Assembly (NCBI GenBank): GCA_965235115.1
Contig: OZ249436.1
Location: forward strand, 11,038,001-11,098,000
From: Laetmonice hystrix
Taxonomy: Eukaryota
Direction of reading: 5' to 3'
DNA: 60,000 nt
In this document: piece after piece, positions 14,488 through 46,670 of the stretch
Numbering within the stretch: position 1 is the first letter of the stretch
Layout: every line of letters begins with the position of its first letter
Made by a program: the position numbers and the translations under genes
The notes under the pieces: model-generated
Database searches by the model: none
Seen by the model: the letters and a program-made list of their open reading frames with translations, nothing else
What the model was told of the DNA's origin: nothing

Positions 14488-14523
14488 AGACTTCTGTTTA
14501 CGTACAGTGCCACTTTTTTTTAC

Positions 14524-20174: not shown

Positions 20175-20200
20175 ACTCACCTGGGAAGATCAAAGAAAAT
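20175..20200 (-). other. Candidate recursive splice site (zero-length exon)
   Basis: attttctttgatcttcccAG|GTGAGT: a polypyrimidine acceptor (AG 20182-20181) directly fused to a consensus donor. Confidence 0.55.
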
Positions 20201-20395
20201 GTAGCCACACAGGTTTTCCCTGTCCCTTTGCATTCTCCAATAAAATTATTCGGGAGGGCAATGCTTTTTCTTTGAGTCATAAGAAAGAAAGGACCATAGT
20301 CAATGTTTAAATATTCTCTCGTTGGGCAAAACTAGACTAGACACTGATGCAAACATCTATTTTTCACCAGCTCAATGTTAGCATTCTCACAAGGA

Positions 20396-20716
20396 CAGAA
20401 CCCGCTTACATGTACCATTTAAAGAGGCGGTATCTCTGGCTGCAAGTACCCTGCCCTGGTACCCAATGTGTGAGGCAGAACCCGCTTACATGTACCATTT
20501 AAAGAGGCGGTTTCTCTGGCTGCAAGTACCCTGCCCTGGTACCCAATGTGTGAGGCAGAACCCGCTTACATGTACCATTTAAAGAGGCGGTTTCTCTGGC
20601 TGCAAGTACCCTGCCCTGGTACCCAATGTGTGAGGCAGAACCCGCTTACATGTACCATTTAAAGAGGCGGTTTCTCTCGCCGCAAGTACCCTGCCCTGGT
20701 ACCCAATGTGTGAGGC
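20396..20716. repeat. 80-bp tandem repeat, 4 near-identical copies
   Basis: cagaacccgcttacatgtacc... recurs at 20396, 20476, 20556 and 20636. Confidence 0.95.
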
Positions 20717-22806
20717 TGCCTTCAGCAATCTCTTCCTGATCTACAGCCTCCACGTCACACCCCAGTCACCGGTCTCCACGTAAATCCCGCCTGAAAACAT
20801 AATCTGATGAAAAACGTCGACAGATCGGACATGACCGGTGTCTTTATGCAGGAGCCCGGAACTCATATCTTAACGGCAAAAACTCATAAAGCCCTTTTGT
20901 GTGCAGTGAATGGGGCCCGGTCGTAACAATTTCGGCGACCCAATCTCGTGCTAACGACGTCGAGGCACCAAATCGGAAGAGTGTGTCCCCACCCCAACTT
21001 TCATATAATACCCACAGACGACAGCACAGTTGGGTAAAGTGTTTGAGTTATTCATAAACCAAGGTTACATTGAGATAAATGATTACAATTCGCTGTGCCC
21101 TTGTTCCTAGTCTACCTGCCGTCTGACTCGGTCAGGGTCGTAACCTATACGTGGTCGTTAAGGCCCTAGCCACACACTTCCCACCATTGACGACATCTTC
21201 ATTGTCTGTCCAATGCTGACACAATATCAGTTTATTGGCAACAATACCCGCGCTTTATGTGATAGAATTTATTTTACGACTTTACACAAATCACTTATTT
21301 TTTTGTTGCACAAGTTTATTGTTACCACTACTGTTTTTCCTCTTGACAATTTCTGTAGACCAGCTCATTAAAGTCAGTACATCGGCCTCTCATTAGATCT
21401 AATGCTTTACTTAGCCGCATTTTCCTCACAGGGATAAGCCCGTCGTTAAATACACTTCTATTTTTAGATTAACTTGTATGGCCACTGCAATGAACGTAGC
21501 CAGAAAAGGTTACTCGAAACACGTAAAAAGGGTATTTACTTATGATTTTTCTATCTCTACTGACCTGCTGTCTACTGTTTGTAAATTAACCTAAGCCCGA
21601 CAGATTCCGTTCGAGGCAAACATGTTACCCTTGGATGACAGAACCATGACGATTTTCACGATTCTCTAAAATTGTCACTACATGCTGGTTCCCCAGGCAG
21701 GGTCCGCTATGGTGATACGTGTACATGATACGTGATGTGGAAAGCTACATGCTGGGCATGCGTTCCCGAGATCGTGCCACTGGGTACAATTTACATCCAT
21801 CCATTACCCCAGGGATGATACGGGCTGCTAGAGAGGGCTAGTTACCCCATAGGTATGCCAATAACATACCCGCAGTGAAGGGTAAGCCGGGAGGCCTTTA
21901 AAACAAGCATCGTTTAATGGCACCGTAAACTGTGTCATGTGAGGCGTAACTTTAAAACCTTGACACCTGACACAACTAATCCTCTAAGTCAACGTTAAAT
22001 AATAAATTACTACTATTTGTAATGTACCGGAACATCAAAGCCTCTGTATTATACATCGTGTCTGTACCTCCAAAGTTTCACTTTGTTTGGATGTAATGAG
22101 GCTAACCGTTGAGTACCGAAGCGATTAAACTGCTGGGTTTAACGTTCATACATATTACACGAGGATCAACCAGAACCAGGCACGGTCCCAAGCCACACAG
22201 ACGGCATCCATACATTGCTCCATTTCCACGACAGGTGCTCCATTTCCTGGACAGTGCCTCCTGAAGAGGGCGGGATTCAGTACAGTTACAGGCAATCTTT
22301 GATGGAGTCGTCACCAGCAGTGTGGTCTGTGATCAAACAAGTCTGTCCTCCTCACTGCAGCCATCCCAGAGGACAACATCCCAACATCCCTGAATAAAAG
22401 TCCTCCTCCTCCCGTAACACTGGCCCTACGTGACCGCCGACACTGGCACCAATATATCCTGCCCCAGTAACCAGCTGGCATCAGTCCCCTGCAGGACCTC
22501 ATGGGCATCCTCCCCAGGATCCCAATCCTCCAGCTTATTTGATCGTTAACTAGGTACAGGTATAGACGCAGCATCACAAACCTTGATTACTGCACCAGAC
22601 AGCCACATAAAAAGAAAGGTCTTTTGTAGCCCGACCTCCATTAGAGACTGTGACGGGATGATGTCAGGCAACCTCTGTGAAGATGGAGGTTTCTCTCTGA
22701 AGTTGACTCCCATCTCTCACCCACAACATCACCAAGACATCACCAAGTCACCTACCTTCAGCGCTGGGAACACATTACGTACATACAGAAAGGCGTGGCT
22801 GCGGAT

Positions 22807-22840
22807 ACTTACCTACAAAAGAAACAAAACGAGAAGACAT
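22807..22840 (-). other. Candidate recursive splice site
   Basis: tcttctcgttttgtttcttttgtAG|GTAAGT (AG 22814-22813). A downstream donor AAG|GTAGGT would define a 57-nt cryptic exon at 22756-22812. Confidence 0.65.
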
Positions 22841-23215
22841 TAATAAATGATTATTTAAACAAACTATACATATAATATAGAACAAATCAACAATGGAATC
22901 AATGGAAGTGGGAGACTTCCCATTTAGCGCCCACAGTATTATACGAACATTCCACAGTAATTTTGGCCTTCATTGAACTAAGGCCAGTTTCTCAGTCGGA
23001 TCTTCAGGACACAACTTACATCTCATCCTCATACATAAAACTCATAAAAACCAGTACTAGAAACCTAACGATAGAACGGTTAGAGAGGGAATCTCTGAGA
23101 GATACTCACTCTCCCATTATAATTGTGTGTCTACCCTAATCAAACTGTGTGTCCAACTTTGATGTAAACTCTCGATATCGTACAGTTAGCCCATGAGGTG
23201 ATTGACACTTTGTCC

Positions 23216-25290
23216 TCTACCACTAACACTGACTGAACGAGGTGTGATAGTTCGGGTTCTACCACTAACACTGACTGAACGAGGTGTGATGGTTCGGGTT
23301 CTACCACTAACACTGACTGACAGAGGTGTGATGGTTCGGGTTCTACCACTAACACTGACTGAACGAGGTGTGATGGTTCGGGTTCTACCACTAACACTAA
23401 CTGACAGAGGTGTGATGGTTCGGGTTCTACCACTAACACTGACTGACAGAGGTGTGATGGTTCGGGTTCTACCACTGACACTGACTGAACGAGGTGTGAT
23501 GGTTCGGGTTCTACCACTAACACTGACTGAACGAGGTGTGATGGTTCGGGTTCTACCACTAACACTAACTGACAGAGGTGTGATGGTTCGGGTTCTACCA
23601 CTAACACTAACTGACAGAGGTGTGATGGTTCGGGTTCTACCACTAACACTGACTGAACGAGGTGTGATGGTTCGGGTTCTACCACTAACACTGACTGAAC
23701 GAGGTGTGATGGTTCGGGTTCTACCACTAACACTGACTGAACGAGGTGTGATGGTTCGGGTTCTACCACTAACACTGACTGAACGAGGTGTGATAGTTCG
23801 GGTTCTACCACTAACACTGACTGAACGAGGTGTGATGGTTCGGGTACCACTAACACTGACTGAACGAGGTGTGATGGTTCGGGTTCTACCACTAACACTG
23901 ACTGAACGAGGTGTGATAGTTCGGGTTCTACCACTAACACTGACTGAACGAGGTGTGATGGTTCGGGTTCTACCACTAACACTGACTGAGCGAGGTGTGA
24001 TGGTTCAAGTTCTACCACTAACTGACTGAACGAGGTGTGATGGTTCGGGTTCTACCACTAACACTGACTGAACGAGGTGTGATGGTTCAGGTTCTACCAC
24101 TAACACTGACTGAACGAGGTGTGATGGTTCGGGTTCTACCACTAACACTGACTGAACGAGGTGTGATGGTTCGGGTTCTACCACTAACACTGACTGAACG
24201 AGGTGTGATGGTTCGGGTTCTACCACTAACACTGACTGAACGAGGTGTGATGGTTCGGGTTCTACCACTAACACTGACTGAACGAGGTGTGATGGTTCGG
24301 GTTCTACCACTAACACTGACTGAACGAGGTGTGATAGTTCGGGTTCTACCACTAACACTGACTGAACGAGGTGTGATAGTTCGGGTTCTACCACTAACAC
24401 TGACTGAACGAGGTGTGATAGTGATGGTTCTACCACTAACACTGACTGAACGAGGTGTGATGGTTCGGGTTCTACCACTAACACTGACTGAACGAGGTGT
24501 GATGGTTCGGGTTCTACCACTAACACTGACTGAACGAGGTGTGATGGTTCGGGTACCACTAACACTGACTGAACGAGGTGTGATGGTTCGGGTTCTACCA
24601 CTAACACTGACTGAACGAGGTGTGATAGTTCGGGTTCTACCACTAACTGACTGAACGAGGTGTGATGGTTCGGGTTCTACCACTAACACTGACTGAACGA
24701 GGTGTGATAGTTCGGGTTCTACCAGTAACACTGACTGAACGAGGTGTGATGGTTCGGGTTCTACCACTAACACTGACTGAACGAGGTGTGATGGTTCGGG
24801 TTCTACCACTAACACTGACTGACAGAGGTGTGATGGTTCGGGTTCTACCACTGACACTGACTGACAGAGGTGTGATGGTTCGGGTTCTACCACTGACACT
24901 GACTGACAGAGGTGTGATGGTTCGGGTTCTACCACTAACACTGACTGACAGAGGTGTGATGGTTCGGGTTCTACCACTAACACTGACTGAACGAGGTGTG
25001 ATGGTTCGGGTTCTACCACTAACTGACTGAACGAGGTGTGATGGTTCGGGTTCTACCACTAACACTGACTGAACGAGGTGTGATGGTTCGGGTTCTACCA
25101 CTAGCTGACTGAACGAGGTGTGATGGTTCGGGTTCTACCACTAACACTGACTGAACGAGGTGTGATGGTTCGGGTTCTACCACTAACACTGACTGAACGA
25201 GGTGTGATGGTTCGGGTTCTACCACTAACACTGACTGAACGAGGTGTGATGGTTCGGGTTCTACCACTAACACTGACTGAACGAGGTGTG
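23216..25290. repeat. 42-bp minisatellite (~49 copies; shorter variants)
   Basis: Tandem ttcgggttctaccactaacactgactgaacgaggtgtgatgg, giving 14-aa periodic ORFs. Confidence 0.97.
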
Positions 25291-25707
25291 AGAACTAGAC
25301 TGATTGAGGTGTCGGCCGACAGGTGGCGGGTTGGGGATTCAACATGTGACACCGATACCCGGACCGTGAAATATCGACCATTGGACGTCCACCTTTATGT
25401 GACTATAACTATAAATTACTACATCTGACGTTTAGAGTCTGGCCGTTTATATATTAACCCGACCACCAGTGAATGAACACCTCAGTGTCCACTCGCTGGC
25501 GGGTAGATGTCCGGCTGGTGGTGGTCATTGAGTGACCAGACCGTCGCTCGGCCAGCGCCCTCACCGTCTCCCCGGGACCCCCTACCGCCGGTGTCCAGCC
25601 AACTGTCACACAGCGTGACGACCTCTTCCATCATATCGGTCATTTATTGACACCCGAACCGAGATGGAGAGAATTCGGAGAATCTCCTGACATACTCAAT
25701 GTTCACG

Positions 25708-25890
25708 GTGACCTTTCTATGAGATCAACAACAACAAAATCCACAATCCTTGTCATCTACCAGTTACCTGACCATTCCGGTGGCTGGGAAGGTTAGAATT
25801 CATGGTGACCTTTCTATGAGATCAACAACAACAAAATCTACAATCCTTGTCATAGTTACCTGACCATTCCGGTGGCTGGGAGGGTTAAAA
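25708..25890. repeat. ~96-bp tandem duplication
   Basis: gtgacctttctatgagatcaacaacaacaaaatc...ggctggga occurs twice. Confidence 0.85.
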
Positions 25891-26228
25891 TTACTTCCTG
25901 ACACCACGTCAGTCATTCCTATGTCATGTGGGACCAAATTTTCTGAATCCTGCAGACTCAGTATAAACGACCCCAAAATCCGCTGTATAATTTAGTGGAT
26001 AAACCTGACCATAGCATGACGGATCAGTGCAGGGGAAAGTCTGGGATAGATGGATATGATAAATGGATACATATGTCACCGAGTCGTACCTTGGACAACC
26101 AGTCGTCACCGACCGTCCACACTCACAGTACGTACCCACTCGCACGTCAGTCCCAACGTAAGCACTCCCCCCCCCCCCCCAAAAAAAAAAAAAAAGAGAG
26201 AGCGAAGAAATCCGAGTTCCTTACTTGC

Positions 26229-26353
26229 CTGAAGTTGCGAGTCTCCATCAAAGTCATCCAATGACTCAAATCGGAGCATGACCTGACTAGTTTAGCTCTG
26301 TCATTAACTGGTTCGACAACCCCGACTTTGGTTCTGGTGATTACCTCCATCAT
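26229..26353 (-). CDS. Candidate alternative first coding exon (MMEVITRTKVGVVEPVNDRAKLVRSCSDLSHWMTLMETRNF[R/S])
   Basis: 41 codons + 2 nt ending at a consensus GC donor CAG|GCAAGT (phase 2). A competing GT donor 4 nt further (phase 0) also exists. The peptide looks protein-like (RSCSDL). Confidence 0.45.
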
Positions 26354-29097
26354 CCACAAACTCGGTGTTGAGATCACTCTCTGCCTGCAGCTACTGTTAG
26401 TCTGGCCATGTTAGCGGGTCAGTTTCCCGGACCGCCTTACCTACGGCTCCAGACACCAATGTTTACCGCAGATTTCACACAGTATCATCTCACCCTGAAG
26501 GCGTTCACACATCAAATGTGTCAACATTTTAATGTGAATAATGACACAAATAGATTGTGACATACATCAATCTAGATATGAGGAATTAAGAAGAGAAACG
26601 TCTGGGTTGTGATTTACTTCATTCTAATTAGCTTAGCCTTTATAAAGACGAACCCTGACAGACGGTAGGCCAACTCTGCGTGATCACCGTCAAATTACAT
26701 ACCTTCACCACACTGCCCTCTGGTGGCTGACAATGATTCTACTACATTTGTATTTATGCGTTATGCACCCGTTTGGACTCTCAGCATCCTCTGACAAGGA
26801 TGATTCTTATAGTGATGTATATATGTGATATTGTCTAATGGGTCTTTCAGCTGAAGCACTAAAACCATTCTAAAAGAACAGTCCACATATTGGCAGTAAT
26901 GCAGAGAGCTACATGTTTTGTTTCGTCCTCTATACTGTCAGATCAGATTGGACCCATTAGATAGAACATCTTTGCTTCCAGAAATAGGATTTCAGCTCGG
27001 AGACGTGCATTTATCAGTTTAATATTGAAGTACACTTTATAAAAGAGGTGCCAGCTAGTTTACATATTGAAGTACACTTTATAAAAGAGGTGCCAGCCAA
27101 TTTGTACATCAGCACGTCTTGTCGTTTGGTGTGTGTCTCGTTCCGACTCCTTCAACTACTTCTAACACACAGGTATACCGACCTCAGCCTGACCATAAAC
27201 CAGGTCACTGGTTGACTGTCGACCATGGTAGTAACCTGACCTAGGTTAGAACCAATACCATCTCTGCGGGGCGTTAAAAATCTCTCTTCTAGTTTTAGTG
27301 TGGGTTACTGTGGAGGAGTCTCCGATAAGTCCCGGCGTCCCTTTCTTCCAGCCAATCAGATTCTGCCGTGGAGGAGAGAGAAAATGTCAGGTAGCAGCTG
27401 GCGAGTACACACGGGACAATGTACATACCCAGCGTACTGATAGCCAGTGAGTGACATATGGCTGGTTACTTGATATAGACTCCTGGAACTTCACATCCTG
27501 AGGCCGACAATCCCAAGGTTAAAGGTCACTGCCAATCATTTTCCTGCAGATTGAAGTTTTCTCATTAAGTCGTTTCTAGGATGACATATCATACAACTCA
27601 GTGGTGCCTTTTCTGAAACTCGAATCAATATATAATAACCCCCCCCCCCCCTTTCCTTGGTAACTTTATATTGTAACCGGCGGCTGATAAAAAACTGAGA
27701 AGAGTAATGAGTTTTTCTTCCTTTTTTTCTTTTTTGACTGCTGAACTTCGTGATGCCGAGATATTTTTCCGTTCAGTCATTCTCCCACCCTGACCTCAGT
27801 CCCCCATTCCCCTCCGCCGACCCCCAGTGGTCCAGGCAGCCTGGAGAAGCCCGGAAGGATCCCCTCACGTCAACCTCACAGTTATTTTTTGTCTCTCTCC
27901 TCGACGTCACTGTTCCCACGAGTGTCTGTTTTCACAAAGCCTGCAGCTAGTAGGAGTTTTATCAGATCAGTCAGCTGCTGTATTCTGGTGTAGTCGATAC
28001 AACACGCGACCAGTATTGTTTCATAGATACAACGTTACAAGGGATACCGGGGTACCTTACGTTCTTGCAGCTGTTGCTTCAAAGAATATTTTCGCTTAAA
28101 ACCACAAACATTTTGAGTGTACGTAAGGAACAACTCTAGACTACGAATCAATAATTTAATTACGCTTTGCCTCCTTATCGTGAATGTAATTGAAGCGAAA
28201 TTCATGGCCTCATACATCCTTACAAGTGGCCCTTTTTTCACGTTTAAATTCCCGCACCATTACTGATTTTACTACTCTTTATTTTTGTATTGGGTTACGT
28301 TTACTGTAGGCTTTACAGCTTTGGCTTATTATTGTGACGCGCCATAAGGCAAATATGGAGCCTATAATTTCAGGTTAGGCAAACAGAGCGTCTGTTTCCA
28401 GGGGAGGGGGTGGGCGGGAGCAGCACTCTGACCCATGGTAGCTCACGCAATAGTGGTTCATCCCGGGTTATGTACTCTTGTATGTTTCCTATTGCTGCTA
28501 TACGGTCAGTTTATGATCAATAGTCACGGAAACCATTATAAGTCGAGGTAACCACACCAAAACACGCAACCCGTTTACGTCCTATATCTCTGACAGAGAC
28601 TGAGAGAGGGTCCAGGATGTAAACGTCTTCATGGTAACTAGGATGTCAACATAACTAAACTAATAACAACGAAATGACAAGGTCCTTAAAATGTAGTTAG
28701 TAAAGTCTCATTTGATCACATACTAGTACATCAGTATATTCATAACATTCAATTCATCCTGAGCTCGGGATGCCCAAGCTACCCGCACTAGAACCTAAAT
28801 AAAGGTAGTCCGCCTCAATTCATAAAAATAAAAAAAGTTGCTATGACCAGCTATCTTATAGAAAACGACATTCACCTTAAAAATTGGTAAACATAGTCTC
28901 CGTGAAAGTCACTCTCACCAGGACAATGCCTGCGATGATTCATGACTACCAAATCTCAGAAATGTGCACATTACCTCATTGTTCACCTAAGTATCTACCT
29001 ATATATACTGATAATGTCAGATTACATGAAAGTTTACTCAAGTAGGAGACAAAGCACATTCTCAGTTCTCAAAGGCCTCAATGTAGGTCAGGCTTAC

Positions 29098-29135
29098 TTG
29101 TGGACGATGACTGGTCTTAGCACCCTGTCCTCCAT
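29098..29135 (-). CDS. Candidate alternative first coding exon (MEDRVLRPVIVH[K/N])
   Basis: ACAATGG start context, 12 codons + 2 nt, strong donor AA|GTAAGC (phase 2). Upstream TATA/Inr present. Confidence 0.55.
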
Positions 29136-29493
29136 TGTGGCCGGTGTCGGGGCATTCTGTGCGGACTTGTCTCCGGTCTGTATCTATGTGTGAGGCCGAC
29201 TCTAGTCCTCCTAACACTCCCAGCCCTGCCACCACAACATGTGCGACACGGATCTCACTAGGCTCGCGCCTGGAGCATGGGATCCTCACATCACCACTAC
29301 TATTACTCCAGTGTATGGAGGTCCTGGAGCATCTTCCAGTGCATCCCTCCAGGTGCCAGATGTCGGTGGAGTTCTCCTGCGAGCACCACACACCCACTCT
29401 CTCTGTCTCTCACTCAGTTTCCCACTTTCCACTCCGTGTCCGTCGGCTGGTTCTCTCTCAGTTTTTACTTTCTCTCACCGAGGGGCAGCTGGG

Positions 29494-29525
29494 TCTGAGG
29501 ACACCACCCTCCCACCTCCTCTATA
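29494..29525 (-). promoter_or_regulatory. Possible TATA-like box + initiator (TSS ~29496) next to a GA-rich tract
   Basis: TATAGA at 29525. The A of TCAGA is 29 nt downstream. Confidence 0.35.
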
Positions 29526-29868
29526 CGGACAACTGTCACCGTGCTCTGTCCGCCGTCCGCCGCCACGGCCTTTTTTCTCCCTCTCTCTCTCTCCACATCA
29601 TTATATCCAACCTAAATAGAGACAGTGTGCCCATCATAAACTGGGTTTATTTTGTCCTTTTTCGATTTTCGCAGTACGATTTGCTGCATTTGGTCAGAAA
29701 ATGAATAAGTTGAGGGGAATTCCTCCAAAACAGTAAGAGTGTCTGTGAAATATAGACCACAGGCCGGACAACTTTCTCACCTGTTCAGGTGTCGTTGTTT
29801 ATCTCACCTTTCTCACGCCGCTACTTATGGATTAACGTAATATGTATGCGTTCTTTGCCAACTAATCA

Positions 29869-30081
29869 TCTCATACCAAGCGGAACATTCAGCTAGGACA
29901 ACACTACACCATGAACACTGGAGAAAGGCAGAATGTTATGTCTTCTCCTAGCTACGTGAGCAAACGTCAGTACGTAAGGAACAACTCTCATACCAAGCGG
30001 AACATTCAGCTAGGACAACACTACACCATGAACACTGGAGAAAGGGAGAATGTCATGTCTTCTCCTAGCTACGTGAGCAAA
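29869..30081. repeat. 117-bp tandem duplication
   Basis: tctcataccaagcggaacattcagctagg...agctacgtgagcaaac occurs twice. Confidence 0.9.
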
Positions 30082-31406: not shown

Positions 31407-34400
31407 ATGGTTGAATGGTACCGTTTGAACCCCTGGGACCTATCCACAGGTTTCATGTCTGGGTCAGGTTGTGGTTGAATGGTACCGTTTGAACCCCTGG
31501 GACCTATCCACAGGTTTCATGTCCGGGTCAGGTTGACTGGTTGAATGGTACCGTTTGAACCCCTGGGACCTATCCACAGGTTTCATGTCCGGGTCAGGTT
31601 GACTGGTTGAATGGTACCGTTTGAACCCCTGGGACCTATCCACAGGTTTCATGTCCGGGTCAGGTTGACTGGTTGAATGGTACCGTTTGAACCCCTGGGA
31701 CCTATCCACAGGTTTCATGTCCGGGTCAGGTTGTGGTTGAATGGTACCGTATGAACCCCTGGGACCTATCCACAGGTTTCATGTCTGGGTCAGGTTGACT
31801 GGTTGAATGGTACCGTTTGAACCCCTGGGACCTATCCACAGGTTTCATGTCCGGGTCAGGTTGACTGGTTGAATGGTACCGTTTGAACCCCTGGGACCTA
31901 TCCACAGGTTTCATGTCCGGGTCAGGTTGACTGGTTGAATGGTACCGTTTGAACCCCTGGGACCTATCCACAGGTTTCATGTCTGGGTCAGGTTGACTGG
32001 TTGAATGGTACCGTTTGAACCCCTGGGACCTATCCACAGGTTTCATGTCTGGGTCAGGTTGACTGGTTGAATGGTACCGTTTGAACCCCTGGGACCTATC
32101 CACAGGTTTCATGTCCGGGTCAGGTTGACTGGTTGAATGGTACCGTTTGAACCCCTGGGACCTATCCACAGGTTTCATGCCCGGGTCAGGTTGACTGGTT
32201 GAATGGTACCGTTTGAACCCCTGGGACCTATCCACAGGTTTCATGTCCGGGTCAGGTTGACTGGTTGAATGGTACAGTTTGAACCCCTGGGACCTATCCA
32301 CAGGTTTCATGTCTGGGTCAGGTTGACTGGTTGAATGGTACCGTTTGAACCCCTGGGACCTATCCACAGGTTTCATGTCCGGGTCAGGTTGACTGGTTGA
32401 ATGGTACAGTTTGAACCCCTGGGACCTATCCACAGGTTTCATGTCCGGGTCAGGTTGACTGGTTGAATGGTACCGTTTGAACCCCTGGGACCTATCCACA
32501 GGTTTCGTGTCCGGGTCAGGTTGACTGGTTGAATGGTACCGTTTGAACCCCTGGGACCTATCCACAGGTTTCATGTCTGGGTCAGGTTGACTGGTTGAAT
32601 GGTACCGTTTGAACCCCTGGGACCTATCCACAGGTTTCATGTCCGGGTCAGGTTGACTGGTTGAATGGTACCGTTTGAACCCCTGGGACCTATCCACAGG
32701 TTTCATGTCCGGGTCAGGTTGACTGGTTGAATGGTACCGTTTGAACCCCTGGGACCTATCCACAGGTTTCATGTCCGGGTCAGGTTGACTGGTTGAATGG
32801 TACCGTTTGAACCCCTGGGACCTATCCACAGGTTTCATGTCCGGGTCAGGTTGACTGGTTGAATGGTACCGTTTGAACCCCTGGGACCTATCCACAGGTT
32901 TCATGTCCGGGTCAGGTTGACTGGTTGAATGGTACCGTTTGAATCCCTGGGACCTATCCACAGGTTTCATGTCCGGGTCATGTTGACTGGTTGAATGGTA
33001 CCGTTTGAACCCCTGGGACCTATCCACAGGTTTCATGTCCGGGTCAGGTTGACTGGTTGAATGGTACCGTTTGAACCCCTGGGACCTATCCACAGGTTTC
33101 ATGTCCGGGTCAGGTTGACTGGTTGAATGGTACCGTTTGAACCCCTGGGACCTATCCACAGGTTTCATGTCTGGGTCAGGTTGACTGGTTGAATGGTACC
33201 GTTTGAACCCCTGGGACCTATCCACAGGTTTCATGTCCGGGTCAGGTTGACTGGTTGAATGGTACCGTTTGAACCCCTGGGACCTATCCACAGGTTTCAT
33301 GTCTGGGTCAGGTTGACTGGTTGAATGGTACCGTTTGAACCCCTGGGACCTATCCACAGGTTTCATGTCCGGGTCAGGTTGACTGGTTGAATGGTACCGT
33401 TTGAACCCCTGGGACCTATCCACAGGTTTCATGCCCGGGTCAGGTTGACTGGTTGAATGGTACCGTTTGAACCCCTGGGACCTATCCACAGGTTTCATGT
33501 CTGGGTCAGGTTGACTGGTTGAATGGTACCGTTTGAACCCCTGGGACCTATCCACAGGTTTCATGTCCGGGTCAGGTTGACTGGTTGAATGGTACAGTTT
33601 GAACCCCTGGGACCTATCCACAGGTTTCATGTCTGGGCCAGGTTGACTGGTTGAATGGTACCGTTTGAACCCCTGGGACCTATCCACAGGTTTCATGTCT
33701 GGGTCAGGTTGACTGGTTGAATGGTACCGTTTGAACCCCTGGGACCTATCCACAGGTTTCATGTCCGGGTCAGGTTGACTGGTTGAATGGTACCGTTTGA
33801 ACCCCTGGGACCTATCCACAGGTTTCATGTCCGGGTCAGGTTGACTGGTTGAATGGTACCGTTTGAACCCCTGGGACCTATCCACAGGTTTCATGTCTGG
33901 GTCAGGTTGACTGGTTGAATGGTACCGTTTGAACCCCTGGGACCTATCCACAGGTTTCATGTCCGGGTCAGGTTGACTGGTTGAATGGTACCGTTTGAAC
34001 CCCTGGGACCTATCCACAGGTTTCATGCCCGGGTCAGGTTGACTGGTTGAATGGTACCGTTTGAACCCCTGGGACCTATCCACAGGTTTCATGTCTGGGT
34101 CAGGTTGACTGGTTGAATGGTACCGTTTGAACCCCTGGGACCTATCCACAGGTTTCATGTCCGGGTCAGGTTGACTGGTTGAATGGTACAGTTTGAACCC
34201 CTGGGACCTATCCACAGGTTTCATGTCTGGGCCAGGTTGACTGGTTGAATGGTACCGTTTGAACCCCTGGGACCTATCCACAGGTTTCGTGTCCGGGTCA
34301 GGTTGACTGGTTGAATGGTACCGTTTGAACCCCTGGGACCTATCCACAGGTTTCATGTCCGGGTCAGGTTGACTGGTTGAATGGTACCGTTTGAACCCCT

Positions 34401-34645
34401 GGGACCTATCCACAGGTTTACTGACAGTCAGGTACCGTAACGAGACTGGTTGAATGGTACCGTTTGAACCCCTGGGACCTATCCACAGGTTTCATGTCCG
34501 GGTCAGGTTGACTGGTTGAATGGTACCGTTTGAACCCCTGGGACCTATCCACAGGTTTCATGTCTGGGTCAGGTTGACTGGTTGAATGGTACCGCTGGAA
34601 CCCCTGGGACCTATCCACAGGTTTCATGTCCGGGTTAAGTTGACT
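31407..34645. repeat. 66-bp satellite/minisatellite (~48 copies)
   Basis: Tandem ggttgactggttgaatggtaccgtttgaacccctgggacctatccacaggtttcatgtccgggtca. It generates the 895-aa ORF with a 22-aa period. Confidence 0.97.
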
Positions 34646-35299
34646 GCAGCATGAATCTAGTCGCTGCACAGTAACGGCACCATTCTGATGGCTGCACTAT
34701 GACAGAATTGTGTTAACTTGATGTGGGCCGTAGGCTGAGTGTCACTGACCGGACAACCACCCGTCCTGGCCACTGACAGCTGCGCAGAATGAAGAGAAAA
34801 TTGATCTCTCTTGCCACGTACCTCTTCCACTAATGGATTATCATTAGTTCCTCCATACCGTTCGCTTTCCAATACAATTGATAGTTTAAACACCACTACC
34901 CCCTCAGTCCTTCAGTATAGACCTAATGGTGCCTGAACTGAAGTATGTCCATGCCAAAGTGGCTTAACACCCGGCCCCTCAAAACAAACAAACAAAAAGG
35001 AAGAAACAGAAAGAAAAAAGACGAAAAAGAGGACAATGTCTGGACCAGACTTAAACAGATGCGTATATTTTTTGTTTGCTTTAATATAAATTTACATTTG
35101 ATGACATTTTCATGTACATGCAAATTATATTATGTTACCCTACCTTCGCCGAGTGAGTTCAACCTCTTAAATCACGATCACACCTTTAACGAAACTCAGG
35201 TCAGGAATTGCCTACTTGAATTAAAACACTAGAAACACTACAAGGTCTGCAAGGTGTCGAGATATCGAGTGAATGAACAAGAAGAATGGAAGGTCTTGC

Positions 35300-35759: not shown

Positions 35760-38199
35760 GACAGCCTTGGATACTGGATGATCCCCAACCCTTTCTACCT
35801 GTCAGCCTGCTGCAGCACGAGTCAGCGTTCCGTAATTACCAGCACAACACTACAAATCTCAAACCACCGGTAAATACAAGTCATCAAACTTAGAGCTGCA
35901 CAACGTCAGGCGTGACACGTCCGCATCTAATTCTATAGGAAACCTCATCAACTAAAGAAAACGACAGCCCGGAATTATAATTTGCTATGAACGATACCGT
36001 CCCAGAAATAATGCGACTATCAATATCTCAGTAGTGATATTAAATATAGACAATGCTGCTTCCGTCGTCCTTTGACATTTGCGCCCCCCCCCCCCCACCC
36101 AAACCGTCTTAGTTTAGACTTGCTTTAATACCGAAATGGACATAATTACGGAGTTCCCACGCATAGTCCTCCCATTTGAGCTAAAATAAAATAACTATCC
36201 CCAAATTAGAATTTAGTTTGACATAATATTATTGGGTAGCTGTCGTACTGTCCATGGCCTGATGGAGACATCCTGGTTGTGAGTTGGTAGTTGGATCTAT
36301 CGAACTGTTGCCAGTTCTCCACGGCAACCATTTTGCCTCAGTTCTGATTTCCCTGGCTGCTCATCAATACCATTAATGCCGCATACATCTCGAGTGAAGG
36401 TCACGGCCCCGCTATTGACCCAGGGTCCCTCTTGTAAAGTCTGTCTCAGCAGACCTGTCAGCAGACCATGCTGCTGCTTTGTCGTGTCATATCGGAAGAA
36501 AAGTCCAAATTACAAATCACACCAATTTTTATCCATTGCCAGATAAAAAAGTGAAAATAAATTTGCTGCTGACAACAAAAGTCGTAATTGGACAGTTAGG
36601 AAGCGGATTGGTTAAAAATAGAATGCAGTTGATGATTTTGACTGAACAGAACAGAAATTCGACGCCAGACGGCCGCGGAAACTGTCCGGTCTCATTTAAA
36701 TGGAAATCGCTCTGCCTTGATGACCCATCTCCTTTGACAGCGCAATCCTTGTGGTCAATATAACTCTCTAGAACCTATCTAACGATACTCATCCCCTCAC
36801 CGTCATGCTTAAATCCCAGACTACACCATCTATTGCAGGTACACATTCAAAAGGTAGGAACTAATTTAAAACCTCTAAGAACCAATCTTTGTCAGTGCGA
36901 GTTAGGCGGTCCTGAAGCCGAGTCTCTGGCAGTGACCATGTGAGGACTTATTGGGTATCTTCAATCACGTCAGACAGCTTCAACAAGAACGTGCAAGACG
37001 ATTGGTTACAGACAACGTTTGATCCTGGCCACTCAGAGACTTTTATTCCGTGAATTATAGATGCCTACTGAAAGAGGCACTGTTTGCCAATAGAATCTTG
37101 CAAATCGTTAAAGAAGCACAATAGAAGTAGCAAGCCCCAGGAGAAACCCGTCTCTCTCCTAACGTAAGTTCTCAAACAGTTATTTAGAGCTATAATCCAC
37201 GATGAATGAACTTTATCACGACGGTCACATGGGTAAAATTATTCTAAAGATCTGTTGGTTTAAACAGATAAGATGGTTTCACAACGAGTCCTAGAGGGCG
37301 CCCCAAACCACTGTATAGGTCAGCCCTTAGGTCTGGGTGTCGGTTACCGTCAGAGGTCACTTGGGAGGTCACTATCCAAACCTGACATTACCTCTAATCT
37401 AGCATAAAACTCTCATCAAGACATCCCAACGGAGACCAGACCTGCATTCATCTAAATTAGCCAGACTCCCTGCGGCAAGGTCAGAGCGGGGCTTTTATTT
37501 AATAGTAACTGGTTAGAAATCTTCGTTTTACAAGACAAATATGAAAGCTAAACGTCGATGTCACGTACTTCACCACCAGGGGCCCCCACAGTTAACTTGG
37601 GCCCCTTCAAACTTCCCTACTGGGAACAATAATCCCATCTAACCTCTAACCTGACTCCACAGTAGACTTGGTTCCTAATTGGCTAATCATGCCTTCACTA
37701 AGTATCTCCTTACAGTTTCCGTGCCAAGAGAATATATCCATGGGATGTACAGATCTGTATAGCCTACCCACCAACATGACTGAAACACAACTAGTCGGTA
37801 CCCATCATCAAGTACTCGGCCTGAATCACGTCAGATATTGGTAATTCAGATGTAATTTGTTCTGGCTCAAGTCATATCAGGATAGAAACCCCATGTCAAG
37901 ATATTTGCAGCTTTAGTGACGACAATGGTGCAAATATTAAGAATTACAAATCTCTGGTTAAGCACATTGTGTCTCATTATTCAATTGCCCTAAAGTTTCT
38001 GTTCAACGTAGCAAGTACCATGCCGTAAGAACTACCGTACAATGTTGAACTGTTTAATCTAACCATACTGCATGCATAATCAACTGCAAACTTGTATAAG
38101 TAGAAGCTGGAATTAATTCTGATGCAAGAGATGGAAATATAAAATACCAAATCTGAATTACGGGCTGAAACTAACAAAAGCCATCCAGAACAACTGATA

Positions 38200-41000
38200 T
38201 TTGATGCAATCTTTCACGTGTTTCAAAGAACGGCAGAAGACCCAAAAAGACGTTCCCGACAGCCAATTCACCCAGCCTGCTCACATAACTCATTCTAAGA
38301 CTATGCTCACGTTACAATTGGTTGAGTAACTTTACAGAGACGGTTTGCCGTTTCCTGAAGCGCATTGCTTGCCTGGCGACCGGTTCGATGTAAAGAGGCG
38401 CCACTGTGCACGTCCTGTGTCACAGTGCCCTTTTGTTGGGAACAAAATCGACAAAATCAGTCCGAAATGCCCAGTGGGGATTACGTCTGAGCAGGCTGTT
38501 CCCAACTTAATGCTAACAAATGGATCCAACACGTTTTTTCTATGGGCCCCATTCATGTTAGCCACCAAAATGTCTAATGTCCTTTCCCTACAGATTGACA
38601 TGTGGTCCACAAGTAAAGGAGGACCACAGTCCTCGTTTTCTCCCTACTAACCGTATAATTCCATCATCTTGTTAGTATTATGGCCACTCCAGCGGCTGCA
38701 ATCTTGCTCATTGCATCTGAAGAGTCCTTATCAGGTTATCTTGCTAGGGTTTCATCCGTCTTGTGAAACGAGCCGTGACCTTGGTAGCCGGCCAGTCTAC
38801 AGCAGGCAGATCACATTGTTGGGAGTCCACTACTGCATGGTACAAGGTTCTTCCACCTTGCCAGCTCCACGTCTGGCCTTACAAGTTCTGGACTCACAAG
38901 TTCTTATCCTCGAGTTTCTAAAGCCAAAGTTTACAGAGCCGTTGCATGTACACGAAAAAAGCATCGGAAATCACTTTAGCTTAAAAATGTATTTTTTCAG
39001 CAGTTTTGGGTCACTAGTGATCCAAGATCCTTGAATTCCGTGTTTCGTAGTTGTATTTCTATGCATATACATCGGATCTGTTTACTTTGTAATCGAAATT
39101 ATAGCAGACGAGAGCAAAGTGTTAGGGCGATTCATCATCTTGCAGGCCGGTCATAGGTTTATTCCATTCAATAAACACTTACAGCTTTACATTAGAGTAA
39201 GGCTGCAGGCTCCGAGGGTACTGCTGCTTCCATACAATAAACACTTACAGCTTTACATCAGGTGCCATATCTCATAGTAAGGCTGCAGGCTCCGAGGGTA
39301 CTGCTGCTTCCATAGAGACAGATTAACGGAGACCACGATGGACGTTGTAATAGATTCTGACTGTGACAATGACCTACACAAATCATCAGCTCTTCTGTCA
39401 AATAGAAAAGAAATAAATTCAAACATCCTGTGAAAATTTCCTCCCGTCAGCCCACACGGCATGAAACGTTTCGCCATGGCGGCCGCGACTCACGCCTTCT
39501 CCAGGTCCAGTTTGCTGACACTGGCCTGATACAGCAGCCTCCTCCAGGTCCAGTTTGCTGACACTGGCCTGATACAGCAGCCTCCTCCAGGTCCAGTTTG
39601 CTGACACTGGCCTGATACGGCAGCCTCCTCCAGGTCCAGTTTGCTGACCCAGGCCTGATACGGCAGCCTCCTCCAGGCTACGTCAGCCCTCTGGAGAGGT
39701 TCTGCCCAGTTTTCGAACCACTGGAGATGTTCCAGAAATGCCATCTTATCGCACTGACCTGTTTTATTCAACAAATCCGATTTTCTCCAAGCATGGTATT
39801 GGAATTTGGCATCACCATTCTGCCATTCTGATGGATTGACGTCTACAGTTTTTGCCTCCAGAATTCTGCATGAATTTCGCCAGCAATCCTGTTTGGCCAG
39901 CTTAAACAAGTGGTCAGATCAGACCGTAAAATAACTAACTGAGGAATGTCTCATTAAATTGTTGTTTCCCAACTTGAACAAAATGCAATGATAAGCATCT
40001 TCATCCAGATAACCTTAAATTCTGGATAATAATAAGAACCTATTTTTGTCCTCCCATTATAATTTCACAGAACTGCTAGAACAGTTATTTGATCATTGGC
40101 AGAAGTGTCTTTATGAATCATAAGAGAAAGACGTGAACCGTCTCTCGAGTCCATCCAAAACAGTACCACTCCAGCTGTTCCTTCCTCATCCACCCATACC
40201 TTGTCCACAACTGCCCAAAATCTGTAGGTCAGAGAGGCAAAGCAATTCCCTCCAGTAGAAAGGGGATTTGTTTTACCTTATTCGGAGGGACTGTATTTTG
40301 TATCAGCCAAATCATTGCATTCATTTAACATTACGACCGGACACTGTGGTCAACAAAGAGTTTCCTGACCTCAAGCAGTCTTTTGAGGAACAGCTTTCAT
40401 TTCCTGCCCTGAACAACGGGAATTGATTCCATTACGCCCCAGTGCTTATCAGGCTAGTCCGGAACAAGTCATCCTGCCTGAAGCTAAAAAAGTAAGACAT
40501 TCAATTTTCTGGAAGGATCTTTATAGACATTGGAGAAAGTGGTTGTACTGGTGCAGCAATGCTGTCACGTATGAACGAGGGGGCTTGTCTCAGTCTAACA
40601 TAGACATTTCGTTGTCCCCCAGAAGTCCCATTTTGACTTGAGCGGCTTATAACAGAATCTTGCAGGGAATCAACAAAGGTTTTTGAATAACGTTTACTGC
40701 AGCAATATTGGCCGTGTATGATTTGGCTGGGAAAGAATGAAGTAAATCAGGAGTGAGTGCAAGTAATCGTCAGTCAATACCAGCATATATATCTCTGACA
40801 TCTACAGCTATAGTGTCCACACATCACAAATCCTTCCACGTTACGCCAGAAAACAAACACGGCATCTCCAATTTGGATTACGAGGATGGCGGAAAAAATC
40901 TCCCACAAATTAGATGGCAAGACAGACATCCATAATCTTTATTGGTGGTTTCGGATATTAATCCCACACCAAGCATCAAAATAAAAATGGAACAATTACA
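38200..41000 (-). mobile_element. Heavily decayed non-LTR retrotransposon (LINE ORF2) remnant; boundaries approximate
   Basis: Short minus-strand peptides occur in the expected EN-to-RT order: GDFFRHP (~40890), KLAKQDCWRN (~39875-39905), NFGFRNSR (~38910-38932). Many stops and frameshifts. Confidence 0.35.
39499..39677. repeat. 43-bp tandem repeat, ~4 copies
   Basis: ctccaggtccagtttgctgacactggcctgatacagcagcctc repeated. Confidence 0.9.
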
Positions 41001-41286
41001 GAACATTGATTTCACTTTAGAATTTACACAAACGGGAGAGAAAGACAATATACTGCTGAGTTTTCTCTATCTTAGTGTTCAGCTATTCCCATCTGTTGTT
41101 TGAACAGACTTCCGTTTCTGTGGTTGCCCTATTTAAAGACCCCAGTCAGTCCCTCCGGGTAAGTGACCTGTCCGTGACTCCAGGACCCATGCCAACCTCC
41201 TCAGTGGCCAGTGTGACCTGTCAGTGGACGTGTGACCCATCCATGGCTCCAGGGCAGGCTGCAGTCCTGACCGTCCCATACGTTAC

Positions 41287-41498
41287 TGTTGTTGACGAAG
41301 GAGCTCCAATGCCATCCGTCTGTGAGCCTGCTCTGTGCCACCTTCCTCTTCCTGCTCCCCTCCTGAATGACTTGCTCCTGACCCCTCCCGGCACGCTCCC
41401 TCCATCCCCACTAATGGCATCAACATCGGACCCAATATTTGGCCAGTAAACCATTCACATGTAGACGCCACTGATGATATTACTGAACATTCGTCCAT
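41287..41498 (-). CDS. Candidate alternative first coding exon (MDECSVISS...RRMALELLRQQ); alternative frame 41454-41282 (MVYWPNIG...SSTTV)
   Basis: GC-rich island with acceptor gcctacag near 41514 and donor CA|GTAACG (phase 2). The overlapping frame also ends phase 2 at AC|GTATGG, so the frame is ambiguous. Confidence 0.35.
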
Positions 41499-43252
41499 TT
41501 CGTCGATCACACTCTGTAGGCATATATTAAATTATTCCAATCGCAACTCAGGAAAATATCTAAGATCTTACAACCTTTCAGTTACGAAAAACTTCTTTTC
41601 CGCTAAATTTGATAATGTGCTGATAATTGTGCTTGCCCATAAGTTTCAAGCCGATGACCCTCTGCCCTACCTGACAGGCAGTGACCTAAACGTTGACCAT
41701 GTTTGATCATAAAAACCAATGTTTCCATGATGTTAACATTACGACCCCCATCCCTCGCCCTCCATGCATTATTGAGAGTGAGAGATCGGAATGACTCATG
41801 GCGAAGACCTCTGCCTCCCAAACCCTCATCCTTCCATCATCCCCAGCCGCTCCGACTACTGCGTTCTACAACCCCCAACAATTGGTTTTGACATCACCAC
41901 TCTGCTGTCTCTCTCCCCTCTGGGATCTTTCTCAGGCTCGTGCCATACTTCCCAACATTTGCTGCCTTCCTTCATTCCTTTCACTGATGAAATCTCTGTC
42001 TAGGGGAAGCAGTTGAGAACAGATTGCGACCTCAGTTTGTATCCAACAGTGAGAAAGATGTACATCTCTGTCAGAATCTGTCCAACTATCAGAACACAGA
42101 TACCATTTATATTGTGCCGCCTCTTCATGTACCAGTACCCATTATTTCGTCCCCGTTACTAGCAGGATTCCTGAGCTAGTTTTCCCGAGTGCAGTGTATT
42201 TTATCTTTTATACTTATCCCCATTATTCTGTAGGGATGTCCTTCCATTATGTTGCTGAAGAAAATCTTTGCCTTATTTTCGTTGTGTTTCCTCATTATTC
42301 TTGCTGCATCGCTTTACTAATAACACCTACGAGTATCTATTAGCTGTCCCGCCATGTGTGTCGGTTACAGGTTGACGTCGACTGTATCTAACATTGGAAA
42401 CAAAACCCCAGATCATTTGACTTAATTCTTTTTTCTGTTATTTTGAGACTCAATGCAAACACAGTCATGTACATTCAATGTGCATGTAATTGTAATCGAA
42501 CATAATTTTTTTCTACAAAATCATGAACACTGTTGTCATCCTTACACACGAATGTAGGTCAAATAAAATACGTTCTTTTTACAGTACCCATCATTGGCAC
42601 CCAGCATTTATTGTCGCCGGTTTACCTACACATTTCTGAATGTTATTTACATCATTTCTCTTTCGTAACAACTTAGTCCGAGCCGCAGCGTTGATTCAAT
42701 AATGTCATTATGACTTTCCTAACGACCCTCTTCATTACATTACTGCTACCATACGTATCGACGCAGGACTAAACAAATTGTATGCTTGACGTTACGTCTG
42801 TCTCCGCGCCCAGCTCTTCATTCAAAATCCTTTACACCCACAGAATATATCAATACTGCTGTAGATCTAATCCAAGCTACTATCATTATCTGACAGAATA
42901 TCACCAGAATATCTCAGCATGGTGGCAGACAGGCGGTGACAAAACGTATATTTGTCAAACTAACCTTTAATCAGATATTTGTACAAATAACAGTGTTTTA
43001 ATTTCGAGAGAAGCTAGAAAAACTAAAATTATGCAATCAAATGACCTCAAACTTTACCCGCAATAATTTTATTAATTTCTAATTGTTTACCACCATTCCC
43101 CTTCTGTCCCTCCCTGGACCACTAACCCCCCAGACCTCAACCAATTACCGATAACATCCACCGCCTCCACCAATATACCCCACAAGTCTTCTACAAGATT
43201 TCACCGTTTCACACTATTAGATACTATTAAAGAGAGCCACTGCAGCGACGTG

Positions 43253-43832
43253 ACCGAAACCAACACTGCCATTCAGTGCCCAGGTAGACACAAGCTACCG
43301 AAACCAACACTGCCATTCAGTGTGCCCAGGTAGACACAAGCTACCGAAACCAACACTGCCATTCAGTGTCCAGGTAGACACAAGCTACCGAAACCAACAC
43401 TGCCATTCAGTGCCCAGGTAGACACAAGCTACCGAAACCAACACTGCCATTCAGTGCCCAGGTAGACACAAGCTACCGAAACCAACACTGCCATTCAGTG
43501 TGCCCAGGTAGACACAAGCTACCGAAACCAACACTGCCATTCAGTGTGCCCCGGTAGACACAAGCTACCGAAACCAACACTGCCATTCAGTGCCCAGGTA
43601 GACACAAGCTACCGAAACCAACACTGCCATTCAGTGCCCAGGTAGACACAAGCTACCGAAACCAACACTGCCATTCAGTGTCCAGGTAGACACAAGCTAC
43701 CGAAACCAACACTGCCATTCAGTGCCCAGGTAGACACAAGCTACCGAAACCAACACTGCCATTCAGTGCCCAGGTAGACACAAGCTACCGAAACCAACAC
43801 TGCCATTCAGTGTGCCCAGGTAGACACAAGCT
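43253..43832. repeat. 44-bp minisatellite (43-46-bp variants), ~13 copies
   Basis: Tandem accgaaaccaacactgccattcagtgcccaggtagacacaagct. Confidence 0.95.
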
Positions 43833-46603
43833 TGTACTTAAAGCTCCACCTCAGTCAAGTGATCATCAGTTTAACACTGAATCATTGCATTACACCTTGA
43901 ACTCCCTCGCAACCAATCAGTTCCTCATACTTTATAGTCTTGAGAATCACGCCAAACGATGGCAGCTTTCTGAGGTAACACTGGCCTATAGCTCCATGTG
44001 TTCCTCCCTCATCCTCCGTCGATATGCTAACTGATATGTATACGCCTTGTGTAAATTTTAAACCAGAAGAAATTTCCAATTCTCCCTGTCCTGCCTGATG
44101 TTAGGAACTTTAAGAGTTCCAAGCCTATTCACTTTGTGACAATCCTTGGTAATTTTCGGAGCTGCTAATGCTGCTACAGGCTAACAAATCTCCTTCTCAC
44201 CTTCCCAAGCATACCAAGATCAAAGCCCTTGCAGAGATGACCTGACGGGGCCGACTGTTGCATGTAATGACTCCAGAGTCAGATCCTTGACGGTCGTCAA
44301 TCCGTCCTCCGACCCTTTAATCCAAGGACTGTGGGGTACACGTTCCTCCAAGCCGAGCGGTGATACGCTGTGTGCGCGCTCGCGGTGACATCAGGCACAC
44401 AGCTATGGAGAACCACGAATCGTTGGGGTGGCGCAGACCTCACCCTATTGTTGATGGCACGGGCGGGAGGCGGTGGCAGCGGCGTCAGTCCTCCTCAACA
44501 GTGGCCAACTCCTCACTACGAGCGGGTCCCAGTCCCCGAACGTTATCAACCAACGCCAAGCCGCTGTCCAATAGCAGCCCCGCAGTGTGTAGCTACTTGT
44601 AACCATGGTGATTGTCACCATAATCAGTATGGAGTCGGCGGGCTGGGACAAACTCGTTTGTGTGCATCTCCGCAAACAGGGACTGCTCAGCTTCTTGTAA
44701 TAGCTTGAATGCTTCTCAGAACATCAAAGTGAATCTATGAAAATCCTCATGAGAATCCCCCTATTTATTGACTGGCCATTCCCGCCAGCTTTGCTTTATC
44801 ACTGGAACACGAAGTCAATTTGTACGACAATTCCTACGTTATAACACTAAACATGGGTGTCAAATATCTCTTGCATATGTAGTTTGGCACTAAGCAGTGC
44901 ATACTATTGAATGAGTATCTCTGGCCATATTGACCACAATGCCGCATTATTTTTAACCAACTGGACCAAGCCCGATAACGCACGTATACAGCAGTGAAAC
45001 CTATTGGGAATCCGTAACTTTTTCAACACGACCACATCCTGATTTCTGGTCCAACTAAAAGGCCAGCTTTGTGAAAGGTTGTGCCACCGGCTCCAGCAGG
45101 TAATTCAGAACCTGCCTGGCCTTTATCACCAGGCCGTTTGCCATCAAAATGTCACTTGGTAGCCGCCCGATTTAACAGGCTAAACCTCAGCCCTAATCCC
45201 AATCTTAACCCTGCCAAGTGTTTCCTGGGTCAAATCAATAAATATGTTCTACACTGCACTGGTCTCATGGATCATCCGCGACCCGTGTTGATCGCAGGCC
45301 TCGGACAGGCTTGCTCCAGGCCTTGCCAAGTTCAAAGCACTTTTATTAGTGTTAATAATGTTGCTATTCCACCTACTGTAATTCGGATTCAAATGCCAAA
45401 TAATCTGCAATGATAGGAATCCAGACTGATGGAAGAGTCTCAGAGATGCTATCAGGTCCAAGTACCATTAAATGTGGTGTTATACAAACTCGCGTCGACT
45501 TGATATAAAAACCTACAATTCTGTCAACGGTCGCGTAATTAGAGCAAACACCTTGCCAACACGTGACGGTGGACTATCGCTATAATTATCTACCATTTTT
45601 ACGTGTTGGTCAACCAACTCTTGCTGACCAACTGGTGAAAGAACTGTTTGCCTATGTAAGATTAAACGTATCCACATCTGCAGGCCTGCCCACCCAGCGC
45701 GGCTCGTCCCAGTGGCCTTCATGTGGCCACCGAGCAGAGAAACCGTATAAAGTAGTATGTGAAATGTGGCCGATGTATCAGGTTCTGTAACGCTAACCGT
45801 CCCAGCGGTTTTCCAAACCAGTCATCCCCGTAAAAGCATTAATCCTGAAAAAACTGACTAACTCTGCTCTGTTTTTTTGGCTATGGCAATATATATAAAC
45901 CTGGGTGAACAATGAGGCATGTATACCATCTGACAAGATATTACCTTACCTCCTGACAATTTCTACAATAGATTGACCAGTAGCGTGGTGGGTGTGTTTA
46001 CGACGCCTCGGCTTGCTTCATTTCCCTCCAAGCTCTGTTACACGGCTTTTCAGTTTCATAATCTATATTTCAGCGTTAAAGACACACGTCCTAATATGAT
46101 CTGACTGGCGCCTAGACTCTACTGAAGCTCCTAGCTCCGTTCCGCGCAGACTTTTGATACCCACATTATTATTCAGACATCCAATGTTCCTCAAGTTTTC
46201 TCTCGGTCAATTTTCCTTTCGGAAATAGAAACATTTTTGTCAAAAAGCTCCACATCGATTCGGCTAGAATTTAAGGGACATTGTCGATAATAAAAGACAT
46301 TCTATTTTCTGACCTTTCACTTGCAATGCCCCGTTTTAAACGTCATATGGTTAACGACACGCTTCAAAAGGGTCCCTTCGAATGGAAAAACACTGGAGGT
46401 ACTGAGTATTTCTCCTCTATATCCTCATTTTGAACCTACATTCTACTTAGCTATATCAGCAGGGACGCCTATTATAGATCACTTTGGGCGTCTATCTACT
46501 ACTAGTGATATGAGACAAACGATGGATCTTTTTATGTGTGTGGGGCCTTCAATCTTCCTTCTGACACAAGTTCTAGTTGTAAAATAAAATAAAATCAGTT
46601 TAC

Positions 46604-46617
46604 CTTGAGCGAGCCAT
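46604..46617 (-). CDS. Micro N-terminal coding segment MARS[R/S] inside a 45-nt exon (46604-46648)
   Basis: ATG GCT CGC TCA AG|GTAAAC (phase 2). The exon is bounded upstream by a strong acceptor. Confidence 0.45.
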
Positions 46618-46642
46618 ACTGTTTCTGAGTGTCAAACGTGGT

Positions 46643-46670
46643 ACTTACCTGAAACATACAGAAACAACTA
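46643..46670 (-). other. Candidate recursive splice site
   Basis: ttgtttctgtatgtttcAG|GTAAGT (AG 46650-46649). Confidence 0.65.

Follow-up and report, generated by a model that had tools for sequence, protein, structure and literature searches.

Recursive splicing, the stepwise removal of a long intron through ratchet points at which a 3' splice site runs directly into a 5' splice site, is established in flies and mammals (PMC8605326, PMC8758631, PMC5126111, PMC7175933). Fly ratchet points carry TT at positions -6/-5 in 196 of 197 cases (10.1101/006163), are typically spaced 9-15 kb apart (PMC6110457), and are followed by a cryptic exon, some 50 nt long, which a second donor closes and which is generally out-of-frame (PMC8605326). 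The Bx ratchet point belongs to the longer one among isoforms that differ in transcription start (PMC8605326), and a rare human CADM2 isoform keeps its recursive-splicing exon, or RS-exon (PMC6224609). In long introns, the sense/antisense ratio of ratchet-point motifs is 4-22 in sea urchin, fly, bee and beetle, and it exceeds 10 in mosquito; their density in five invertebrates is 0.48-2.2 per 100 kb on the sense strand and 0-0.12 on the antisense strand (PMC2773006). Here we describe a 60-kb stretch of genomic DNA from Laetmonice hystrix (contig OZ249436.1, positions 11,038,001 to 11,098,000; hereafter the window, numbered from its first base), in which two minus-strand sites, at 22812 and 46648, are candidate ratchet points of the Drosophila type.

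The window contains three motifs in which pyrimidines and AG are directly followed by GTRAGT, all on the minus strand and where an earlier note on this DNA had placed them: site A at 46648 (gtttctgtatgtttcAG|GTAAGT, core CAG|GTAAGT), site B at 22812 (cgttttgtttcttttgtAG|GTAAGT, core TAG|GTAAGT) and site C at 20180 (ttttctttgatcttcccAG|GTGAGT, core CAG|GTGAGT), each named by the first base of GT. The strict juxtaposition of splice sites, YnAG|GTRAGT, is present in all three. No further AG|GTRAGT word occurs on either strand, so that the plus strand lacks it altogether, in agreement with the note's statement that no equally strong equivalent was found there. The long polypyrimidine tract ascribed to all three sites is best developed at 22812, whereas at 20180 it spans merely about 20 nt with purine-rich sequence further upstream. 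Candidate sites were scored by log-odds for acceptor plus donor, using rough matrices of our own with weights from consensus frequencies. Sites A, B and C occupy the first three ranks among 720 AGGT sites (371 minus, 349 plus); the top three scores are 15.8, 12.9 and 11.9, against 7.2 for the next site on the minus strand and 8.1 for the best one on the plus strand.

Outside tandem repeats, GTRAGT directly follows a strong acceptor (at least 6 bits) in 3 of 33 cases on the minus strand, compared with 0.03 expected if the two signals were independent, and in 0 of 21 cases on the plus strand. In Markov nulls (three models of 150 runs each, 450 in total) the count averaged 0.007 and never exceeded 1. 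With the looser donor GTRAG the expectation is 0.148 and P(>=3)=5e-4, and TTNYAG|GTRAGT, with an expectation of 0.15, is present twice, a count reached in 1 of 100 shuffles. The enrichment signal is the coupling of the pyrimidine tract with the donor rather than the core motif. The three sites are no copies of one another, and the bins that contain 20180 and 22812 have single-copy depth. The excess of GTRAG on the minus strand (112 vs 64) was set aside as evidence because base composition alone predicts a difference of about 1.6-fold. Weaker AG|GT sites were also rejected, namely those at 16528, 55033 and 12310, without TT at -6/-5, and the one at 55645, with a poor donor; none of the four has a downstream donor scoring at least 5.

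The sequences around the sites were compared by features that had played no part in selecting them. Site B (22807..22843) is the best candidate for a ratchet point, with the branch-point motif TTAAT (A at -28), a pyrimidine tract and TAG|GTAAGT; its acceptor ranks first among 3131 non-repeat minus-strand AGs, and the nearest upstream AG is at -53. Site A (46643..46689), the second candidate, has TTGAT branch-point motifs (A at -27, -33 and -38), a T-rich tract and CAG|GTAAGT; its acceptor ranks 23rd of 3131 and an upstream AG lies at -21. Both sites carry TT at -6/-5. Their T counts in -102..-23 are attained by only 0.3% (22812) and 1.5% (46648) of positions, and both have in range a YTRAY branch motif, a generic consensus with a background of 24%.

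Each of the two sites is also followed by a donor at the distance seen in flies. Downstream of site B, AAG|GTAGGT at 22755 (+57) would close a predicted cryptic RS-exon of 57 nt (22812-22756; feature 22750..22812); this donor scores 10.0, and such a donor is found at +40..+80 in 0.4% of positions. The predicted exon is open when entered in phase 0 and runs into a stop in phases 1 and 2. Downstream of site A, AAG|GTAAAC at 46603 (+45, score 7.1, background 7.3% for the same interval) would close a predicted RS-exon of 45 nt (46648-46604; feature 46598..46648). This exon contains agtATGG, a start codon in good context, followed by an open MARS frame to a phase-2 end; a start codon of this kind occurs in 7.8% of the positions that have such a donor. 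Phase-2 entry meets an immediate stop at 46648, 22812 and 20180 alike.

Three contig runs were aligned over 14500-23200, a stretch that covers 20180 and 22812 and excludes 46648. They show allelic differences and no splice-like joint. None of the 40 substitutions inspected, of 132 in total, falls inside the motifs at 20180 or 22812, a sample too partial to count. In one allele, all three runs have 2 bases in place of a 70-nt stretch (22552-22623) that lies some 130-200 nt downstream from site B's cryptic donor.

We lean towards reading 22812 and 46648 as ratchet points of the Drosophila type with predicted cryptic exons of 57 and 45 nt, which probably mediate the stepwise removal of a putative long minus-strand intron, and 20180 as likelier an ordinary donor. 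The earlier note's reading of ratchet points is thereby kept for the two sites with independent flanking features, and not for 20180, where TC stands at -6/-5, the branch motif is absent and T content is at background. Like the intronic ratchet points of Drosophila Ubx, kuz and Bx, 22812 and 46648 combine a strong acceptor|GTAAGT, TT at -6/-5 and a second donor about 50 nt downstream. Saw-tooth coverage, junction reads and lariats, along with conservation, have established the Drosophila sites, whereas those described here are predicted from sequence. As in the long invertebrate introns surveyed in PMC2773006, the motif is confined to one strand; the comparison is between that survey, whose 13 species include no spiralian, and a single window scored in another way. 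The motifs are likely to be functional if they lie on the sense strand, because the published sense/antisense ratios in long invertebrate introns are 4-22.

By analogy with the fly sites, we infer exon definition followed by re-splicing at 22812 and 46648. The downstream donor would help to define the short cryptic exon, and a distant upstream exon would then be joined to the strong AG. The junction would rebuild a donor from the last 3 nt of the upstream exon plus GTAAGT, and this rebuilt donor would usually beat the donor of the cryptic exon, so that no trace of the exon would be left in the mRNA. For an upstream exon ending in phase 2, accidental inclusion of the cryptic exon would lead to an immediate stop (G|TAA). 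By our rough scores, the donors that could be rebuilt at site A reach 8.2-11.9 with all three candidate upstream exon ends, compared with 7.1 for the cryptic donor. At site B, the cryptic donor (10.0) is surpassed by five of the six donors that candidate upstream exons would rebuild, in one case by just 0.3.

The surrounding sequence is intron-like. None of the 167 open reading frames (ORFs) of at least 70 aa in the window, longer repeats excluded, reached the Pfam cut-off, with a few sub-threshold matches, and the window has 0 matches in Rfam. On the plus strand G is rarer than C in 27 of 30 bins, the minus strand being G-rich. The absence of Pfam-level exons and the strand skew are compatible with a long intron read from the minus strand and are no proof of it.

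Several observations weigh against the ratchet-point reading. The flanking exons of the putative long intron were not found within the 60-kb window. The spacings between the sites, 23.8 and 2.6 kb, differ from the 9-15 kb typical of flies. Both predicted RS-exons are multiples of three and open in phase 0, and a donor lies 200-280 nt upstream, in both respects unlike the cryptic exons of flies. More exactly, GTAAGT is found 207-280 nt upstream of both good sites (background 7.7% each), and by the observed-to-expected ratio of CpG the 500 nt before site A rank within the top 1% among 416 windows. At site B the contest between donors is close, since the cryptic donor (10.0) rivals several of the rebuilt ones (8.2-12.7). 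The core YAGGTRAGT taken without the tract shows no enrichment in the window (3 vs 2.56 expected), nor does the pattern with two mismatches anywhere (5 vs 4.53). Finally, the thresholds were chosen post hoc with the sites already known, the window had been selected by a reader on the lookout for such motifs, and the scores come from rough matrices.

Several of these points suggest that 22812 and 46648 could instead be acceptors for expressed exons of short length, with GTAAGT at their start by coincidence. Such exons would be the second of two in a local 5' module, or else microexons kept in frame (phase 0), and their splicing would be conventional or only occasionally recursive. Upstream of site B, a donor GAT|GTAAGT at 23019 (feature 23014..23045, minus strand), 207 nt before the site, closes a weak-context phase-2 ATG frame, MSFMYEDE, and is possibly the end of a local upstream exon. 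Upstream of site A, the tandem donors TAC|GTAAGT (46928) and TAA|GTAAGT (46924) (feature 46919..46928, minus strand), 280 and 276 nt before the site, lie in a CpG-rich stretch and may likewise end a local upstream exon. The gaps between these donors and the sites are T-rich (40-41% T) and intron-like. With these GTAAGT donors ahead of them, both good sites may in addition be the 3' ends of short introns that belong to local 5' modules. The CpG-rich sequence upstream of site A, the good-context ATG of exon A with its frame open to a phase-2 donor, and the frame-preserving, phase-0-open character of both exons point in the same direction.

Precedents for such exons exist. Expressed RS-exons (Ubx m1 and m2, of 51 nt, and human aCADM2; PMC8605326, PMC6224609) are short exons that open with a donor hexamer and have a length divisible by three, and the rebuilt donor competes with the exon's own donor, as is predicted here; the predicted exon A differs from them in that it would carry a start codon. 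What this alternative leaves unexplained is the perfect donor hexamer at the start of both exons, on a minus strand with 13 GTAAGT words in all. Moreover, the upstream donors and the ATG of exon A were spotted post hoc, and donors scoring at least 8.5 are found 60-400 nt upstream of 21% of positions. We regard conventional expressed exons as a rather unlikely explanation of the two sites, one that overlaps in part with the ratchet-point reading and with the further readings below.

On the minus strand at 48430-48575, 1.8 kb upstream of 46648, an inverted CCAAT box is followed by a CpG-rich stretch and the whole looks promoter-like; a similar CTGATTGG is found near 27355. At 25767 and 25859, also on the minus strand, a local duplication of about 92 nt has produced two identical donors, CAG|GTAACT, each closing a short phase-0 ATG frame.

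The earlier note took all three sites, including 20180, to be ratchet points, a view we consider improbable. Site C (20175..20233) consists of CAG|GTGAGT after a pyrimidine run of about 20 nt and closes the ATG frame MQRDRENLCGYIFFDLP in phase 2 (ATG at 20233, A at -3). In favour of a ratchet point, its acceptor ranks 11th of 3131, it is followed by GTGAGT and it has an AG-free zone of 41 nt. Weak donors downstream could define an exon (19962..20180, minus strand) of 72 nt (donor 20108, +72) or 213 nt (donor 19967, +213), with phase-2 ATG frames MEAVS... and MDPAG..., both weak; the former donor, with only 5.5 bits, is the best in +40..+80. On the other side, the bases at -6/-5 are TC instead of the TT of flies, no YTRAY is found within -48..-17, and the T content of -102..-23 is at an ordinary background level, attained by 75% of positions. 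The site lies just 2.6 kb past site B, and its pyrimidines are accounted for by the final codons, Tyr-Ile-Phe-Phe-Asp-Leu-Pro, of the frame MQRDRENLCGYIFFDLP. Because the ratchet features are missing and a phase-2 ATG frame ends there, an ordinary exon donor is, as far as the sequence can tell, a likelier reading of site C than a ratchet point; phase-2 ATG frames end at 10 of 48 strong minus-strand donors and are common by chance.

Two observations concern the neighbourhood of site C. A 3-nt deletion at 20120 in one contig run preserves the MEAVS frame and is uninformative because it is located in a CTG repeat. Between 229 and 469 nt upstream of 20180, an 80-nt tandem repeat on the minus strand (20396-20716) has four copies, each with a donor-like CAT|GTAAGC.

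A further reading joins the two functions. The ratchet points could double as second exons of local promoters, with distal transcripts rebuilding the donor and erasing the exon, which would make recursive splicing a promoter-identity switch for a gene with several promoters. This reading is motivated by the upstream GTAAGT donors, the CpG-rich stretch, the MARS frame and the phase-0-open exons. A short local intron (23019 to 22812, or 46924/46928 to 46648) would deliver the exon to transcripts from a nearby promoter, and at 46648 the delivered exon would bring its own start codon (MARS, phase 2). Splicing of distal-promoter transcripts into that acceptor would recreate a stronger donor and thereby remove the exon again, G|TAA serving as a fail-safe stop. 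Inclusion of the CADM2 RS-exon reportedly depends on an alternative promoter in the work of Sibley and colleagues from 2015. We consider such a switch quite doubtful, and more so than the presence of a third ratchet point at 20180.

That the motifs arose by chance in T-rich, G-skewed non-coding DNA and were picked out among many windows appears least probable of all. In favour of chance, the core motif is not enriched, the G-rich minus strand favours donor-like words, the thresholds were post hoc and no gene was identified in the window; it is opposed by P(>=2) of about 5e-4 under independence, by the maximum of 1 in 450 Markov runs and by the independent flanking features at 22812 and 46648.

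Read as ratchet points, 22812 and 46648 are likely new instances of a mechanism known from Drosophila and vertebrates. If confirmed, they would extend fly-type ratchet points with cryptic exons to a probable spiralian, filling the gap between insects and deuterostomes, and would bear on the question whether bilaterians in general share exon-defined recursive splicing. This would be a taxonomic extension of a known mechanism, hinted at by the motif enrichment in five invertebrates. The earlier note considered the phenomenon little documented outside model species. No report of spiralian recursive splicing was found in the literature by searches that were partly loose and had subscription papers and supplements outside their reach; the statement is too broad for other groups, as sense-strand enrichment is published for sea urchin, mosquito, bee and beetle (PMC2773006) and the lungfish has been examined for recursive splicing with total RNA (10.1101/2024.12.11.627982). 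A role in switching promoter-specific 5' ends would be the more interesting and less likely outcome; if true, it would be the first spiralian case, with RS-exons that bear start codons. The positions 22812 and 46648 are precise targets for reverse-transcription PCR.

The battery of alternative first exons that the earlier note had placed on the same strand could not be confirmed: a blind count gave no clear excess of phase 2, no homologs of the candidates were found, and one of them starts inside a high-copy polymorphic insertion. The note's suggestion that stepwise removal may help distal transcripts to skip downstream first exons depends on this battery. Blind counts for phases 0/1/2 on the minus strand were 5/3/6 (donor at least 7, RnnATGG), 7/4/10 (at least 8, RnnATG) and 38/43/37 (at least 5, RnnATG). 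Phase-2 candidates running from ATG to a donor on this strand start at 53786, 51712, 29135, 19053, 17499 and 960. Among them are a candidate upstream first coding exon at 53659..53786 (MGELSD..., donor AGA|GTAGGT, no homolog), candidate first coding exons at 29098..29135 (MEDRVLRPVIVH, donor CAA|GTAAGC) and 18947..19053 (MDTMTT..., donor CTG|GTAAGC, no Pfam match), and a candidate long first coding exon at 209..960 (250 aa, MKGLSQ..., donor CTG|GTAACG, no homolog), all four minus-strand and ending in phase 2. The frame at 209-960 is rich in Ser, Arg and Pro with a His run and resembles a long disordered N-terminal exon.

A Pfam search with four candidate first-exon peptides gave no match, and no usable homologs of the candidate peptides were found in protein homolog, Atlas or metagenome (protein and DNA) searches. 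A search of a representative library returned a single match (E=3e-4), an unrelated repetitive protein of 1665 aa, and a PDB search with a candidate peptide gave only E>=0.7. Metagenome protein and DNA scans found no related locus, and no common exon downstream of the candidate first exons was found in the window. A phosphodiesterase-4-like or RhoGAP-like host was considered as a conjecture from N-terminal patterns only.

Two further first-exon candidates were dropped. In the candidate at 15534-15365 the ATG belongs to a very high-copy insertion that one allele lacks. The element, of about 345 bp at 15446-15795, has a summed contig depth of 2-6e5 compared with about 40 in its flanks, and a joint in all three contig runs skips 15451-15794; these features mark it as a very high-copy mobile element that is polymorphic at this site. 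The candidate at 3486-3264 is in phase 1 and lies inside an element bounded by inverted repeats. This element (2046-4099) has 73-nt inverted repeats, 89% complementary and 1.9 kb apart, and further inner inverted arms; it is likely a non-autonomous DNA transposon, and the CpG-richest 500-nt windows lie in it. Tandem repeats make up about a fifth of the window, and long minisatellites are numerous, with 31-66-nt units in as many as about 50 copies, in tracts at 23216-25291, 31408-34646, 47178-48347, 58539-59914, 10616-11437, 13680-14487 and 43253-43832.

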